64,000 bases of DNA, taken from NCBI GenBank assembly GCA_947259215.1, contig CAMYLJ010000022.1, positions 125,238-189,237 on the forward strand, written 5' to 3'. The position numbers and the translations under genes are program-made. Below are positions 37,372 to 48,616 of the stretch, in pieces (position 1 is the stretch's first letter; each line of letters starts with the position of its first letter). The stretch is from an uncultured delta proteobacterium (GTDB lineage Bacteria > Myxococcota_A > UBA9160 > JAFDET01). The notes below the pieces were generated by a model. It was not told the origin of the DNA and did not search any database. It saw only the letters and a program-made list of their open reading frames with translations.

Positions 37372-38592
37372 GTGGCCCACCCCCTCGCCACCCGCGCCTC
37401 CCTCTACTGGCGGCTCTTCCGGGGCGTGCTCGAGAACCCGCGCTTCTACCACTTCGTGCTGCGGGGCGGACCGTACGAGAAGACCGCGCGGCGCCTGGCC
37501 GCCGGTGACCTCCCGGGCAAGGGCGAGCACTACCCGGTCAAGCTCGACCTGCGCATCGTCTACTCCTGCAACCTCCGCTGCAAGATGTGCGGCCAGTGGG
37601 GCGACACGGGCACGTTCTTCGACTACGACCAGGCCAAGCTGCGCCAGCACCTCTCCGTGGACGCGATCCGCAGCGTCGTGGAGGAGCTCGTCCCCCACGG
37701 CCTGCGCTACGTGGACATGGAGGGCGGCGAGACCTTCCTTCACCCGCAGATCATGGACCTGCTCCGGATGCTGAAGTCCCACGGGCTCTTCGTGAAGCCG
37801 GTCACCAATGGCACGCGCCTCGATCGCTTCGCCGACGAGATCGTGGACTCGCGGATCGAGGCCCTGCACGTCTCGCTCGACGGCGATCGCGAGGCCAACA
37901 ACCACGTGCGGGGCTTCGACTGGGCCTACGACAAAGCCATGGACGGCCTGCGCGCCGTGGCGGAGGCGCGCCGCCGCGCCGGACGCCACACGCCGCTGCT
38001 CCAGATCAGCTTCACCATGACGCGGCACAACAACGCCGAGTCGCTGGTGAAGCTCTGCGAGGACGTCTCCGGCCAGGGTCTCGTCGATGTGATCTCGATC
38101 AAGGCGAGCCCGATCTGGCTGCCCGAGGAGAAGGGGCGCGCCTACCAGGAGCTGGTAAGCCGCTACCTCGGCGTCCACGAGAGCGTCGACAGCTGGAAGG
38201 GGTTCGTCGAGGACTACTCGGACTTCGGCGACGACGCCCGGCGCATCGCGGACGTCATCGCGGACCTGAAGCGGCGTAGCTTCGACTTCTTCGTCGACGC
38301 CCTGCCGAGCATCGACCTGAAGCAGCTGCCGCGCATGTACCAGGACCACGACTGGGACCTGGGGCGCAGCCACTGCCCGATTCCGTACGTCGAGCCCACC
38401 ATCGAGGCCGATGGCAACGTCTACGCCTGCAACCTCTACACCGACGAATCCATGTCGATGGGCAACATCCACGAGCGGCCCTTCCTCGACATCTGGTTCG
38501 GCGAGAAGTTCCAGGCCTTTCGCAAGATGCTGAACGAGGAAGGCGGGCTGCTGCCCATCTGCAACCGCTGCTGCCAGCTCGTCGAGAACTAG
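37372..38592 (+). CDS. Radical SAM enzyme with a SPASM/twitch-like C-terminal Cys-rich domain
   Basis: It starts 4 nt after the hpnI stop. It has CxxxCxxC in YSCNLRCKMCGQWG, GGETFLH, and C-terminal cysteines (HCPIPY, YACNLY, PICNRCCQL). It does not look like HpnH, HpnP or HpnR. Confidence 0.85.
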   Translation: MAHPLATRASLYWRLFRGVLENPRFYHFVLRGGPYEKTARRLAAGDLPGKGEHYPVKLDLRIVYSCNLRCKMCGQWGDTGTFFDYDQAKLRQHLSVDAIRSVVEELVPHGLRYVDMEGGETFLHPQIMDLLRMLKSHGLFVKPVTNGTRLDRFADEIVDSRIEALHVSLDGDREANNHVRGFDWAYDKAMDGLRAVAEARRRAGRHTPLLQISFTMTRHNNAESLVKLCEDVSGQGLVDVISIKASPIWLPEEKGRAYQELVSRYLGVHESVDSWKGFVEDYSDFGDDARRIADVIADLKRRSFDFFVDALPSIDLKQLPRMYQDHDWDLGRSHCPIPYVEPTIEADGNVYACNLYTDESMSMGNIHERPFLDIWFGEKFQAFRKMLNEEGGLLPICNRCCQLVEN

Positions 38593-40244
38593 GGCGCCAG
38601 GCGGTAGACGACGCGGCCGCCGGCTGCGTCGAGCGTCTCCGCGCGAAGCCCGAGGCGCTCGAGCCGGCCCTCGAGCACCTCGGGCTCTCCCACCAGGAAG
38701 ACCTCTCTTCGCTCGGCGACGAGCCCGGACAGCGCGGCGTCGTCCAGGATCAGGGCCTGGCGCTCCGCCTGGTGGAACGCCATGCGGCTGCCCTCGGACG
38801 CCGCCAGCACCGACACCGGCGCCCGGACGTAGAAGGCGAGCAACGCCACGTGCTCGAACTCCGGCGGCTCCACGGAGACGAGGAGCGCGTCGTCCCCGGC
38901 CAGCTCGTTGAAGCGATCCGCGGCGAACTTGCGCGACTCCTCGGCGTACTGGACCCGGTAGGTGGAGCGGGTCACCTGGAAGAGCACCACGCAGACGACG
39001 GCGATGCAGGCCAGCGCCAGCGCGGCGCGCCCGACCGCGAACGCCAGCGCGGCGCCGAGACCGAAGAGGCCCGTGGCGGCCAGGAAGATGATGGCCAGCT
39101 CGAGGGACGGGATCCCGAGCTGCGCCACGAAGGCGGAGTCGCGTCCCAGGCCCAGGACCGCCAGCGACCCGATCGCGAGCCCGGTCACCAGGAACCAGGG
39201 CATTGCCCAGGCGCGTTCCGACGAGAAGCGCTTCTGGTCGAGCATGTCGGACAGGCATACGGCCATGGCCAGCAGCACGGGCGGATAGACCTGGAGCCCG
39301 TAGGCATCCACCTTGCTCGCCGAGAGCGAGTAGGTGACCAGCGGGATCGCGGCCCAGGCGCCGAGCAGCACCAGCCGGTCCGCCGGCAGGACGCGCGCTC
39401 GCACGCCGCGCGCCAGGTCGCCGGCCGCCGCGGGCAGGTGCAGGATCCAGGGGAAGAGCTCCGCGGCCACGAGCGCGAGCCAGAGCCCGGTGGGGAAGAG
39501 CGCGTCGTTGGACACCATGGAGCCCGTGAAGCGACGCAGGTGCTCGTTCAGGAGGAAGACCTCCAGGAAGTCCGGATGCCGCACCGCCATGGTGACGAGC
39601 CACGGGCCGACCAGCGCCAGGAAGACCGCCGGCCCGACGGGATGGAAGAGCCGCCAGAGCGGGCTCCCGTCCCGACACCAGAGCCGGTGGCAGAGCGCCG
39701 TCCCGCCCGGCACGAAGACGCCGGGCAGCCCCTTGGCCAGGAAGCCCAGCGCCATGGCGGCGTAGAAGGCGGCCAGCCAGGAGAGCGCGCCGGTCTGGTG
39801 GAAACGCCAGTACGCCGCCACCGCCGCGATGGTCGGCGCCACCAGCGCGAACTCGATCCCGGCGTCGAGCCCGTAGACGTACACCTCGGTGGTGAGGAGA
39901 AAGAGCACGAAGGCGAAGAAGCTCGTGCGCCGGTCGAAGAGCATGGCGCCGAGCAGCGCCAGCAGGCCCGCCGAGGCGAGCGCCCAGGCCAGGTTCGAGA
40001 TGCGGGCGGCCGCCTCGCTCACGCCGAAGCCGGTGTAGAGCAGCGCCGTCGGCCAGTAGGAGAGCGGCGGCTTCTCGTAATAGGCGGCGTAGTCCAGGTG
40101 GGGCGTCAGCCAGTCGCCGAGCTCGACCATCTCGCGCGGGATCTCCGCGTACTTCGCCTCGGAGTCGCGCAGCGGCCGATCGACGCCCGGGAGGTAGACG
40201 GCGGCCGCCACGACCACGACGAGGAGCCACCAGCCGAAACGCAC
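38589..40244 (-). CDS. ArnT-like GT-C glycosyltransferase (family 39/83), paralog 1
   Basis: 551 aa and polytopic. The first periplasmic loop DSEAKYAEIPREMVELGDWLTPHLDYAAYYEKPPLSYW closely resembles E. coli ArnT (RYAEISREM ... YFEKP) as I recall it. Confidence 0.85.
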   Translation of the reverse strand: MRFGWWLLVVVVAAAVYLPGVDRPLRDSEAKYAEIPREMVELGDWLTPHLDYAAYYEKPPLSYWPTALLYTGFGVSEAAARISNLAWALASAGLLALLGAMLFDRRTSFFAFVLFLLTTEVYVYGLDAGIEFALVAPTIAAVAAYWRFHQTGALSWLAAFYAAMALGFLAKGLPGVFVPGGTALCHRLWCRDGSPLWRLFHPVGPAVFLALVGPWLVTMAVRHPDFLEVFLLNEHLRRFTGSMVSNDALFPTGLWLALVAAELFPWILHLPAAAGDLARGVRARVLPADRLVLLGAWAAIPLVTYSLSASKVDAYGLQVYPPVLLAMAVCLSDMLDQKRFSSERAWAMPWFLVTGLAIGSLAVLGLGRDSAFVAQLGIPSLELAIIFLAATGLFGLGAALAFAVGRAALALACIAVVCVVLFQVTRSTYRVQYAEESRKFAADRFNELAGDDALLVSVEPPEFEHVALLAFYVRAPVSVLAASEGSRMAFHQAERQALILDDAALSGLVAERREVFLVGEPEVLEGRLERLGLRAETLDAAGGRVVYRLAP

Positions 40245-47534: not shown

Positions 47535-48616
47535 CGTGCGGCCTCCCGGAGCACCCGCCCCAGGGTCTCCACCACGAAGTCTACGTCGGCGTCGGTCATG
47601 TCCGGAAACAGCGGCAGGGTCAGGATGCGCCGGTCGGCCTCGGTTGCCGCCGGCAGCGACGCCGGATCGACGTCGTCGCGGTAGAGCTTCAGCAGGTGGA
47701 GGGGCACGAAGTGCAGGCCGGCGCCGACCCCCGCCTCGCGCAAGGCGTCGATCACGCCGTCCCTGCCGATGGAGAGGGCGTCGGGATCGACCTTCACCAC
47801 CAGGATGTGCCAGGCGTGCACGTGCTCGTAGGCGGCGGTGCCCAGGGGCTCCACGTGCCGAACGTCGGCCAGGCGCGCGCGGTAGAGCTTCGCCAGCTGG
47901 GCGCGGCGGGCGTTGAGCGCGTCGAGCCGCGCGAGCTGTTGGAGCCCGATGGCCGCCTGCAGGTCGGTGAAGTTGTACTTGAAGCCGGCCTCCAGCAGCT
48001 CGTAGGAGCCCGGACCGCGCCCGCTGGAACGCGCATCGGGGCTCTGATCGATGCCGTGGAAGCGCAGCCGGCGCATGCGCGCCGCGCGCTCGTCGTCGTC
48101 GGTCACCACCGCGCCGCCTTCGCCGGTGGTGAGGTTCTTGGCGGGGTGGAAGCTGAACATGGTGAGGTCGCCGATCGTCCCGATCGTCCGGCCCTTGTAG
48201 GACGCACCCAGCGCGTGGGCGGCGTCCTCCACCAGCGCGAGCCCGTGCCGGCGGCAGATGTCGAGGAGCGCGTCCTCGTCGCAAGGCTGGCCGGCGAAGT
48301 GCACGGGCAGGAGCGCGCGCGTGCGGGGCGTCAGCGCCGCCTCGACGCGGCTGGCGTCCAGGTTCAGGGTGTCCGGCTCCACGTCGACGAAGACCGGGCG
48401 GGCACCCGCGTGCAGGATGACGTTGCCGGTGGAGACCCAGGTCATCGGGGTCGTGATCACCTCGTCGCCGGGACCGACGCCCGCCGCCAGCAGCGCCAGG
48501 TGCAGGTCCTCGAAGCGCCGGGCGCGCGGGCCGGTCGAGAGCCAGCCGGAGCGCAGGCACTCCTCGACTTCGGCGACTTCGGCGTCGGTGATCGAAGGAC
48601 GCGCGTAGGGAAGCAT
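47531..48616 (-). CDS. arnB: UDP-4-amino-4-deoxy-L-arabinose aminotransferase ArnB-like (DegT/DnrJ/EryC1 family) with an internal deletion
   Basis: It has YARPSITDAEVAEVEECLRSGWLSTGP, GDEVITTPMTWVSTGN, EDAAHALGA and the PLP-Lys context FSFHPAKNLTTGEGG. The ~18-aa segment that normally carries the SSGTAAL motif is missing between RRFED and LHLALLA. Confidence 0.85.
   Translation of the reverse strand: MLPYARPSITDAEVAEVEECLRSGWLSTGPRARRFEDLHLALLAAGVGPGDEVITTPMTWVSTGNVILHAGARPVFVDVEPDTLNLDASRVEAALTPRTRALLPVHFAGQPCDEDALLDICRRHGLALVEDAAHALGASYKGRTIGTIGDLTMFSFHPAKNLTTGEGGAVVTDDDERAARMRRLRFHGIDQSPDARSSGRGPGSYELLEAGFKYNFTDLQAAIGLQQLARLDALNARRAQLAKLYRARLADVRHVEPLGTAAYEHVHAWHILVVKVDPDALSIGRDGVIDALREAGVGAGLHFVPLHLLKLYRDDVDPASLPAATEADRRILTLPLFPDMTDADVDFVVETLGRVLREAAR

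Follow-up and report, generated by a model that had tools for sequence, protein, structure and literature searches.

The principal chromosomally encoded path to resistance against polymyxin and cationic peptides is modification of the cell envelope with 4-amino-4-deoxy-L-arabinose (Ara4N), which has been understood as the work of one transferase on lipid A. In Escherichia coli and Salmonella the pathway is encoded by the operon arnBCADTEF (pmrHFIJKLM), in which ArnT, an enzyme of the GT83 type, is that transferase. Here we describe an arn locus at positions 38589-48616 of a 64-kb stretch of DNA from an uncultured bacterium (the whole stretch is called the window below). Judged by homology, the locus encodes the full route from UDP-glucuronic acid (UDP-GlcA) to undecaprenyl-phosphate-linked Ara4N with a split ArnA, and it contains three ArnT-like glycosyltransferases of the GT-C fold, which we designate GT-C1, GT-C2 and GT-C3. 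We put at roughly one half the probability that a single pool of undecaprenyl-phosphate-Ara4N feeds all three enzymes, each of which would act on a different site of the lipopolysaccharide (LPS).

The window shares with the enterobacterial system the five biosynthetic activities, at 36-52% identity to the E. coli enzymes, as well as an undecaprenyl-phosphate-linked donor and periplasmic GT-C enzymes that carry the lysine of the YFEKP motif and an arginine in loop 2. It differs in that its genes form not one operon but five or six transcription units, the two halves of ArnA are encoded on opposite strands, three divergent GT-Cs are found where enterobacteria have one ArnT, ArnE and ArnF are missing, and an efflux pump is joined to the arnB unit. 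The logic of one transferase per LPS position is that of Rhizobium and Mesorhizobium, whose Rgt enzymes (RgtA, RgtB, RgtC, RgtD and RgtF, with RgtE as the donor synthase) are ArnT-like and share one lipid-linked (polyprenyl-phosphate) galacturonic acid donor. RgtA and RgtB act on 3-deoxy-D-manno-oct-2-ulosonic acid (Kdo), RgtD at the 4' position of lipid A and RgtF at its 1 position (PMC4402001, PMC9393093). The sugar there is the anionic galacturonic acid whereas Ara4N is cationic, and the likeness that we draw is one of logic.

Clusters with a split ArnA are known from Burkholderia, Ralstonia and Cupriavidus, which have separate formyltransferase and decarboxylase genes as the window does, and the ArnT of Cupriavidus metallidurans (PDB 5EZM and 5F15) is the closest solved structure for all three GT-Cs. 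[quoted passage not shown] The window, in contrast, has three clade-distinct enzymes, two of them without the essential tyrosine of the RYA motif. Three-component systems (GtrA/GtrB/GtrC, and the GT136 pentofuranose systems) also combine a GT2-family polyprenyl-phosphate-sugar synthase with an extracytoplasmic GT-C (PMC11127046); these systems have a small flippase gene, whereas none is present in the window or in the 13 multi-GT-C arn clusters that we examined.

Using the E. coli K-12 Arn proteins as tblastn queries against the window (E. coli is locus L001; the loci compared below carry numbers of the same series), we identified each of the five biosynthetic genes. A stand-alone homologue of ArnA's C-terminal domain, the UDP-glucuronate C-4'' oxidative decarboxylase, is encoded at 40333..41364 (+); it is 52% identical to residues 316-653 of E. 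coli ArnA (at 40333-41346; E = 2e-105) and passes the split-type NCBIfam model NF008872 with 490 bits (cut-off 294). The N-terminal domain of ArnA, the UDP-Ara4N N-formyltransferase, likewise has a stand-alone homologue at 45661..46578 (-), which is 42% identical to residues 2-291 (at 45694-46563; E = 2e-66) and passes the split-type model NF005414 (347 bits, cut-off 316). Because these curated split-type models exist and are passed, the split of ArnA is an already catalogued arrangement, and the two halves were separate genes in every environmental arn cluster that we sampled.

The remaining three functions are probably encoded by ArnD, the deformylase of undecaprenyl-phosphate-linked 4-deoxy-4-formamido-L-arabinose (Ara4FN), at 41375..42286 (+; 36% identity at 41387-42271, E = 5e-49); by ArnC, the GT2-family transferase of Ara4FN to undecaprenyl phosphate, at 46575..47534 (-; 47% identity at 46608-47507, E = 8e-86), which has three C-terminal transmembrane segments and is the only lipid-linked-donor synthase of the ArnC type found in the window; and by ArnB, the UDP-4-keto-pentose aminotransferase, at 47531..48616 (-; 45% identity at 47552-48616, E = 5e-102), which also matches the Pfam DegT family (E = 7e-114). 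For all three the namesake family was the best in NCBIfam, with scores below the enterobacterial equivalog cut-offs: 236 bits for ArnD (cut-off 382), 325 bits for ArnC (cut-off 529) and 400 bits for ArnB (cut-off 631). The identities to the E. coli proteins span their full length, and the assignments are supported by the co-location of all five functions. We call the start of ArnD at the GTG codon at 41375, since MATPRLAIKVDVDT aligns with the N-terminus of E. coli ArnD. An earlier annotation made from the letters of this DNA alone (the sequence-only reading) had placed ArnB, ArnC, ArnD with this start, and the split ArnA at the same positions, and it is upheld by the agreement of tblastn, Pfam and NCBIfam.

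The pathway may have variants in related clusters. In loci L033, L039 and L067, ArnB, ArnC and the formyltransferase are 60-73% identical to those of the window, and the short-chain dehydrogenase/reductase (SDR) protein is only 32-35% identical to the decarboxylase; in L022 the corresponding values are 46-48% and 35%. On the same plan, the product of these four clusters may be another formamido or amino sugar.

Genes in the window, which has a G+C content of 72%, were called from third-position GC. An open reading frame is present at every position that the sequence-only reading gave for the arn and GT-C genes, and the codon statistics of these frames (GC of 0.93-0.96 at third and 0.40-0.54 at second codon positions) are those of real genes, with strong Shine-Dalgarno sequences. 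The organism is probably an uncultured diderm of the Myxococcota from marine sediment, and by k-mer matching relatives occur in marine-sediment metagenomes. The gene for GT-C1, on the minus strand, diverges from the decarboxylase and arnD genes across a spacer of 88 bp; arnD and the GT-C2 gene converge, as do the GT-C3 and formyltransferase genes; and the GT-C2 and GT-C3 genes diverge across a 52-bp spacer (43942..43993) that contains one Shine-Dalgarno sequence for each gene and probably also a shared promoter and regulatory region. The formyltransferase gene stands last in a minus-strand run of genes for an outer-membrane factor, an HlyD-type adaptor, an ABC ATPase and a MacB permease, followed by arnB and arnC. 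Family scans of the predicted genes did not find ugd in the 64-kb window.

The three transferase genes lie at 38589..40244 (-; GT-C1, 551 amino acids), 42283..43941 (-; GT-C2, 552 amino acids) and 43994..45664 (+; GT-C3, 556 amino acids), and their products are only 27-29% identical to one another in pairwise comparison. Several lines of evidence relate them to ArnT. In tblastn searches E. coli ArnT matched GT-C1, GT-C2 and GT-C3 with E values of 5e-20, 1e-13 and 2e-3, and ArnT is the sole NCBIfam family that any of them matched. Against the PDB, GT-C1 matched the ArnT structure 5EZM with E = 3e-29 as a single sequence and 7e-57 as a clade profile, GT-C2 matched it with E = 3e-21 as a single sequence, and the clade profile of GT-C3 had ArnT as its only credible match (E = 1e-14). 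ArnT was in fact the only credible PDB match (E < 1e-10) for the GT-C1 and GT-C2 single sequences as well as for the GT-C1 and GT-C3 clade profiles. An AlphaFold2 model of GT-C3 (pLDDT 91.3) had ArnT 5F15 as its best Foldseek match (E = 4e-17, template-modelling scores of 0.74 and 0.76); the next GT-C fold, ALG12, scored 0.52, and no GT-C fold other than ArnT exceeded that value. We considered protein mannosyltransferases of the PMT type as an alternative identity and rejected it, since their scores against the GT-C3 model were 0.31-0.42 against 0.74 for ArnT. Three ArnT-like GT-C genes of about 550 codons are therefore present, as the sequence-only reading had it, and neither the sequence profiles nor the fold of GT-C3 place them in PMT-like, non-ArnT GT-C clades.

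The three enzymes differ in a consistent way around the loop-1 motifs. Loop 1 of GT-C1 reads LRDSEAKYA...YYEKPP; it keeps the tyrosine of RYA (as KYA), the lysine of YFEKP and the loop-2 arginine, with the canonical aspartate displaced by one position, and in its motifs GT-C1 is the most ArnT-like of the three. In GT-C2 (LWTPDEPRVS..GREM...FLEKPP) the Asp-Glu pair, the lysine and the arginine are kept, and valine (RVS) stands in place of the RYA tyrosine. GT-C3 (FDHxIWSPTEPAVAGVVWNM...YLEKPPLYYW) has threonine for the canonical aspartate and valine (AVA) for the tyrosine, and its glutamate, lysine and arginine are invariant; in an alignment of 27 sequences the invariant residues are D34, H35, W38, P40, E42, P43, E70, K71, P72, P73 and R258. 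The loop-1 patterns are D-S-E in GT-C1, D-E in GT-C2 and T-E in GT-C3, and this difference is kept across each clade; the departure that had been remarked in the third transferase, with TE where the others have an acidic pair, is real.

We also compared individual residue columns, in E. coli numbering, among 30 canonical ArnT sequences and the clades of GT-C1 (clade A', 11 sequences), GT-C2 (clade B, 17 sequences) and GT-C3 (clade C, 25 sequences). In all four groups E32, K61, P62 and R245 show hardly any variation or none. The YFEKP lysine is present in 30/30 canonical ArnT, 11/11 A', 17/17 B and 25/25 C sequences and the loop-2 arginine in 28/30, 10/11, 17/17 and 25/25, respectively; all three window proteins have both residues, and experiments have shown that ArnT of Burkholderia and Salmonella needs them (K69 and R254 in Burkholderia, R246 for the arginine in Salmonella; PMC5377068). 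The neighbouring columns are clade-specific. At D31, the aspartate of canonical ArnT is absent from A', where it occurs one position earlier, kept in B, and Thr, Val or Ala in C; at Y35, the canonical tyrosine is kept in A' (11/11), replaced by Val (10) or Asp (7) in B, and by Val, Ile or Phe in C, which has in addition an invariant Asp-His of its own seven residues upstream. In ArnT the loop-1 glutamate, the YFEKP lysine and the loop-2 arginine lie about the polyprenyl-phosphate donor. Their conservation beside clade-specific neighbours fits a shared type of donor and different acceptors, a reading that these residues do not prove.

In a bootstrapped neighbor-joining tree of 111 sequences, built without a non-ArnT outgroup, clade A' (11 sequences), the core of clade B (17 sequences) and clade C (25 sequences) were each recovered with 100% bootstrap support, and clade C together with a sister group, C', comprised 27 sequences at 98%. 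The deep nodes were poorly supported (0.08-0.53), and the tree does not give the order in which the clades branched. GT-C1, GT-C2 and GT-C3 are anciently diverged enzymes of three separate clades and no recent paralogs. Searches for homologues of the GT-Cs returned only metagenomic proteins and proteins of metagenome-assembled genomes (MAGs), with Myxococcales, Candidatus Binatia, Candidatus Scalindua and Verrucomicrobia among the named sources. When one genome per GTDB species was scanned, relatives of GT-C3 turned up in 13 loci, all of them in MAGs, and the closest, at 53-64% identity, are labelled Myxococcota or Deltaproteobacteria. Clades A' and C are both small: that of GT-C1 has about 19 full-length homologues, after which the score falls from 317 to 136 bits, and for clade C a search of 1.84 billion representative proteins gives about 40-48 clusters, formed at 50% identity, with scores over 300 bits. 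Contigs of 251 nt from a public metatranscriptome (X15) are 98% identical to parts of the GT-C3 gene (window positions 44058-44308 and 44520-44770), weak evidence that the gene, or its counterpart in a close relative, may be expressed in situ, with DNA carry-over as a possible source.

The clades recur in company. Genes of clades B and C are found within arn clusters, where they are accompanied by a third GT-C that resembles ArnT more closely; in the window, L015 and L023 this third member is of clade A', and elsewhere it is a canonical-type or ungrouped ArnT-like protein. The loci in question are from Myxococcota-type MAGs or contigs (the window, L005, L007, L015, L017 and L023), from Planctomycetota/Brocadiia (L011, which equals L020, L012, L018 and L019) and from a further lineage (L021, with four GT-C genes). 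In the Myxococcota MAG L015 the order is hpnK, hpnI, A', decarboxylase, arnD, B, C, which is the order of the window without its radical-SAM gene. Locus L005 has arnB, arnC, formyltransferase and B, then arnD and decarboxylase on the opposite strand, then C and another ArnT-like gene; L023 has genes for an ABC ATPase and MacB, arnB, arnC and formyltransferase, then a second GT2 gene and B, then arnD and decarboxylase on the opposite strand, then A'. The Planctomycetota/Brocadiia loci share the order C, arnB, arnC, canonical-type ArnT, formyltransferase, decarboxylase, B, (PAP2), arnD, some with a fourth GT-C, and L021 has the order B, B, arnB, arnC, GT-C, arnD, formyltransferase, C. In L020 the PAP2 phosphatase gene (19747-20847) stands between the clade-B gene and arnD, an arrangement reminiscent of Rhizobium, where lipid A is first dephosphorylated and a sugar is then attached at the freed position. 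Within 10 kb the window has one ArnC and three GT-C genes, and this pattern of one synthase with at least three ArnT-like GT-Cs recurs in L005, L011, L012, L015, L018, L019 and L021. Because three deep clades are found repeatedly inside arn clusters of different phyla, the data suggest indirectly that Ara4N may be delivered from one donor to several acceptors, as the sequence-only reading had proposed. We found no account in the literature of an ArnT-family clade trio that recurs with arn genes across phyla, and this trio appears to be undescribed; the Ara4N pathway and the split ArnA are already known, and the lack of arnE and arnF in cis is common.

Genes of clades B and C are usually adjacent. 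They are head-to-head in L007, L015 and L017 as in the window and in tandem in L003 and L010, and three further B and C pairs are suggested by equally long contigs (5732, 3876 and 9936 bp). This adjacency would also suit a hetero-oligomeric transferase with a single acceptor, made up of GT-C2 and GT-C3, in which GT-C3 would be a non-catalytic or acceptor-binding partner. Heterodimeric GT-Cs have precedents with solved structures (Pmt1-Pmt2 and EmbA-EmbB), and the loop-1 aspartate is replaced throughout clade C. We nonetheless consider such a complex quite unlikely: with its invariant Glu, Lys and Arg and an Asp-His of its own, clade C has the look of an active enzyme; L022 and L023 have B but no C, and L002, L009 and L013 have C but no B; and in Planctomycetota several arn genes lie between the two.

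A number of observations weigh against a single Ara4N pool that serves all three enzymes at different LPS sites. Their scores with the NCBIfam ArnT model NF009784 (139, 102 and 56 bits for GT-C1, GT-C2 and GT-C3) are far under its cut-off of 567. GT-C2 and GT-C3 lack the RYA tyrosine (Y43 in Burkholderia, Y36 in Salmonella), which is essential for ArnT activity in both genera (PMC5377068). A C-terminal glutamate (E493 in Burkholderia, E478 in Salmonella) is present in 28/30 canonical ArnT sequences, and its column holds Gly, Ala or a gap in the window GT-Cs and is variable in their clades, in a region of uncertain alignment. In L002, L009 and L013 no arn gene lies within 10 kb of the clade-C gene, and a tandem of B, C and C' genes in Lentisphaerae/Verrucomicrobiota MAGs (L003 and L010) has no clear arn genes within that distance, L010 showing only a weak formyltransferase-like match. 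Genes of the GT-C1 clade are found in contexts other than arn clusters in L024, L025 and L105. Finally, because a second ArnC-like GT2 gene overlaps the clade-B gene in L023 and is co-transcribed with it, clade B may use another donor there.

The solitary and tandem clade-C genes, the second synthase of L023 and the loss of the RYA tyrosine in clades B and C could be accommodated if one or two of the GT-Cs used a lipid-linked donor other than undecaprenyl-phosphate-Ara4N and were co-located simply as envelope glycosyltransferases. The clusters described above, in which ArnB, ArnC and formyltransferase resemble those of the window and are paired with a different SDR protein, suggest related pathways that lead to other formamido or amino sugars. 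We regard this as rather improbable, however, because the window has a single ArnC-type synthase, its decarboxylase is a strong UDP-GlcA decarboxylase match, and in at least 10 loci from several phyla the genes of clades B and C stand between arn genes and not just close by. The clade-B gene of L022 (on a 3.57-Mb contig), which is 44% identical to GT-C2, is the sole GT-C gene of a compact arn-like operon, where its partners are ArnB-, ArnC-, formyltransferase-, SDR- and ArnD-like genes.

From the gene content, homology, clade structure, synteny and fold given above we infer the donor and acceptor of each GT-C and the resulting phenotype, and we favor the following scheme, in which one Ara4N donor serves three LPS sites. 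As predicted from their homologues, the decarboxylase would oxidize and decarboxylate UDP-GlcA, ArnB would aminate its product, the formyltransferase would formylate the product of ArnB, ArnC would move Ara4FN onto undecaprenyl phosphate, and ArnD would remove the formyl group. A flippase other than ArnE/ArnF would bring the lipid-linked donor to the periplasmic leaflet, where GT-C1, GT-C2 and GT-C3 would place Ara4N on different acceptor positions from the single donor pool. The most likely acceptors would be two positions of lipid A and an inner-core Kdo or sugar of the LPS, and the likely outcome would be a surface with less negative charge and a cell that resists cationic peptides.

Resistance of this kind fits the presence of a MacAB-TolC-type tripartite pump that is apparently in an operon with arnB. 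Pfam matches identified its outer-membrane factor, HlyD-type adaptor, ABC ATPase and MacB permease at 48635..53005 (-), co-oriented with arnB and separated from it by a gap of 18 bp after the permease gene. The pump genes, arnB, arnC and the formyltransferase gene probably form one operon. The order from the ABC ATPase and MacB through arnB and arnC to the formyltransferase gene is kept in L023 (1-4785) at 67-78% identity, and the unit suggests a single cationic-peptide-resistance operon.

No match to ArnE or ArnF was obtained in the 64-kb window with the E. coli proteins as tblastn queries, and Pfam scans of its predicted genes found neither. A profile hidden Markov model built from 11 environmental ArnE-like proteins together with E. 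coli ArnE and ArnF, run at maximum sensitivity against all six-frame open reading frames of at least 50 amino acids in the window, returned nothing below an E value of 0.3. The gene at 62693-64000, which was scanned with NCBIfam only, looks like an anti-sigma factor and not a small membrane protein. Only two small multi-pass proteins could be considered as flippase candidates, a stand-alone LAB_N (lipid A biosynthesis N-terminal) protein at 18732-19091 (+) and a DUF4345 protein of 123 amino acids and four transmembrane segments at 30479-30850 (+); neither adjoins glycosylation genes, and we rejected both as ArnE/ArnF-like because hhalign gave them a probability below 1% against the ArnE profile, which leaves them nominal candidates for a replacement. 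The absence of ArnE and ArnF from the window, which the sequence-only reading had reported, was thus borne out by tblastn, the profile, Pfam and hhalign alike.

That this absence is unusual, as had also been claimed, did not hold. A metagenome scan seeded with an alignment of the GT-C1 clade proved too generic in its motifs and returned mostly canonical ArnT loci, with L025 and L026 as the only members of the clade, and these loci served us as a sample of environmental arn clusters for background. E. coli ArnE found homologues at 29-50% identity directly after ArnT in many of these loci, and the test therefore has power to detect arnE. An arnE-like gene adjoined 10 of 43 environmental arn clusters and was missing from the other 33, so that the absence of arnE and arnF beside arn genes is the commoner state in the environmental bacteria sampled, and the problem of how the donor is flipped is a general one and not special to this locus. 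An arnE-like gene was missing from all 13 clusters that have two or more GT-Cs and present in 10 of the 30 with a single GT-C (hypergeometric P = 0.016, with the kinship of loci left uncorrected). A reading bolder than that of a membrane-lipid target discussed below, and an unlikely one, would draw on this one difference and have an extra GT-C paralog substitute for ArnE/ArnF in presenting the donor. In Burkholderia, DedA-family proteins are reported to be required for Ara4N modification (PMC7835334), and the small flippases of three-component systems are themselves still unproven (PMC11127046).

On its left side the arn locus adjoins a set of putative genes for a hopanoid cyclitol-ether head group (33198..38592, +) that encode an AurF-like di-iron protein, HpnJ, HpnK, HpnI and a radical-SAM/SPASM protein. 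HpnJ scores 741 bits, above its equivalog cut-off of 578, HpnK is borderline (230.4 bits, cut-off 232.6), and HpnI is below its cut-off (219 bits against 310); neither shc nor hpnH is present in the 64-kb window. The AurF-like gene (33198-33986, +), of the oxygenase type, overlaps the start of hpnJ by 4 bp, and a homologue with 35% identity lies just upstream of the GT-C/arn cluster of L021 (5-628). The AurF-like protein might act on the side chain of a hopanoid or a sugar. The radical-SAM/SPASM gene (37372-38592, +), which follows hpnI and is missing from the syntenic L015, does not encode HpnH (61 bits, cut-off 225) and may mark an undescribed modification of the hopanoid head group.

The sequence-only reading noted that the arn locus abuts the hopanoid genes and shares a CTAG stop with the radical-SAM gene. 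The shared stop is real (38589-38592). The same CTAG overlap occurs at 42283-42286, 45661-45664 and 19088-19091, that is, in four of the eight convergent gene pairs of the window, and TAG is the commonest stop codon there (29 of 57 genes); CTAG is strongly avoided otherwise: base composition predicts about 158 copies, and there are 22. We therefore rejected the shared stop as a mark of coupling and attribute it to a habit of the genome. Because the hpn operon and the GT-C1 gene are convergent, they are not co-transcribed. The adjacency of hpnK and hpnI to a GT-C1 gene was found in only one other MAG, L015, where the genes are convergent as well, and it is absent from L005, L023 and all of the Planctomycetota loci. 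The evidence for a functional link between GT-C1 and the hopanoid operon is weak.

A second neighboring cluster may bear on acceptors. On the other side of the pump lie six genes (53335..59059, +) that by family matches encode a CDP-alcohol phosphatidyltransferase, a HAD phosphatase, an IPCT-like nucleotidyltransferase, an unassigned 285-amino-acid protein, a class-III aminotransferase and an iolG-like oxidoreductase. The best matches of the phosphatidyltransferase and nucleotidyltransferase are inositol-phosphate cytidylyltransferase, DIPP synthase and PIP synthase, and from these matches the cluster may make an inositol- or inosamine-type phospho-head group. A homologous set in L024 (1838-11710; aminotransferase 53% identical), with LPG_synthase_TM and radical-SAM genes in addition, has a gene of the GT-C1 clade directly downstream on the same strand, apparently in one operon; L024 is the single locus in which this link was seen.

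These neighborhoods raise the question of whether at least one of the three GT-Cs puts Ara4N on a target outside the LPS, such as a bacteriohopanepolyol or cyclitol ether, an inositol- or inosamine-type phospholipid, or a periplasmic or surface protein. The adjacency of hpnK and hpnI to GT-C1 is kept in L015 at 51-64% protein identity, the GT-C1-clade gene of L024 is the last of a co-oriented inositol-type set, and in L021 homologues of the AurF-like protein and of the class-III aminotransferase stand on the flanks of the GT-C/arn cluster. GT-C enzymes with such targets exist: PimE and the glycosylphosphatidylinositol mannosyltransferases act on inositol lipids, and TfpW glycosylates pilins. 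We hold a target outside the LPS to be unlikely all the same, given the convergence of GT-C1 with the hpn operon, the absence of the hpn adjacency from L005, L023 and the Planctomycetota loci and the genomic habit behind the shared stop. The inositol-type cluster is linked to the clade in L024 and not in L025, L026 or L105, and the known glycosylation of hopanoids is carried out by a GT2 enzyme, HpnI, which acts on the cytoplasmic side. The narrower proposal that a membrane lipid outside lipid A receives Ara4N from at least one ArnT-like clade, either an amino-cyclitol hopanoid of the adjacent hpnJKI operon or an inositol- or inosamine-type phospholipid of the 53335-59059 cluster, strikes us as slightly more doubtful; if it were true, charge remodeling by Ara4N would extend beyond LPS to other lipids of the envelope.

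We return to the scheme in which one Ara4N donor would serve three LPS sites. The occurrence of three conserved, arn-tied clades of the ArnT family in Myxococcota-type, Planctomycetota and other uncultured lineages suggests that the set of enzymes is broader than the single transferase of the model systems. The two clades with an altered loop-1 motif are natural experiments on the choice of acceptor in ArnT-like enzymes, and the lack of arnE and arnF in most of the environmental arn clusters sampled sharpens the question of which protein flips undecaprenyl-phosphate-Ara4N. If the set of enzymes is indeed broader, decoration with Ara4N would be more elaborate in environmental bacteria than it is in model organisms.

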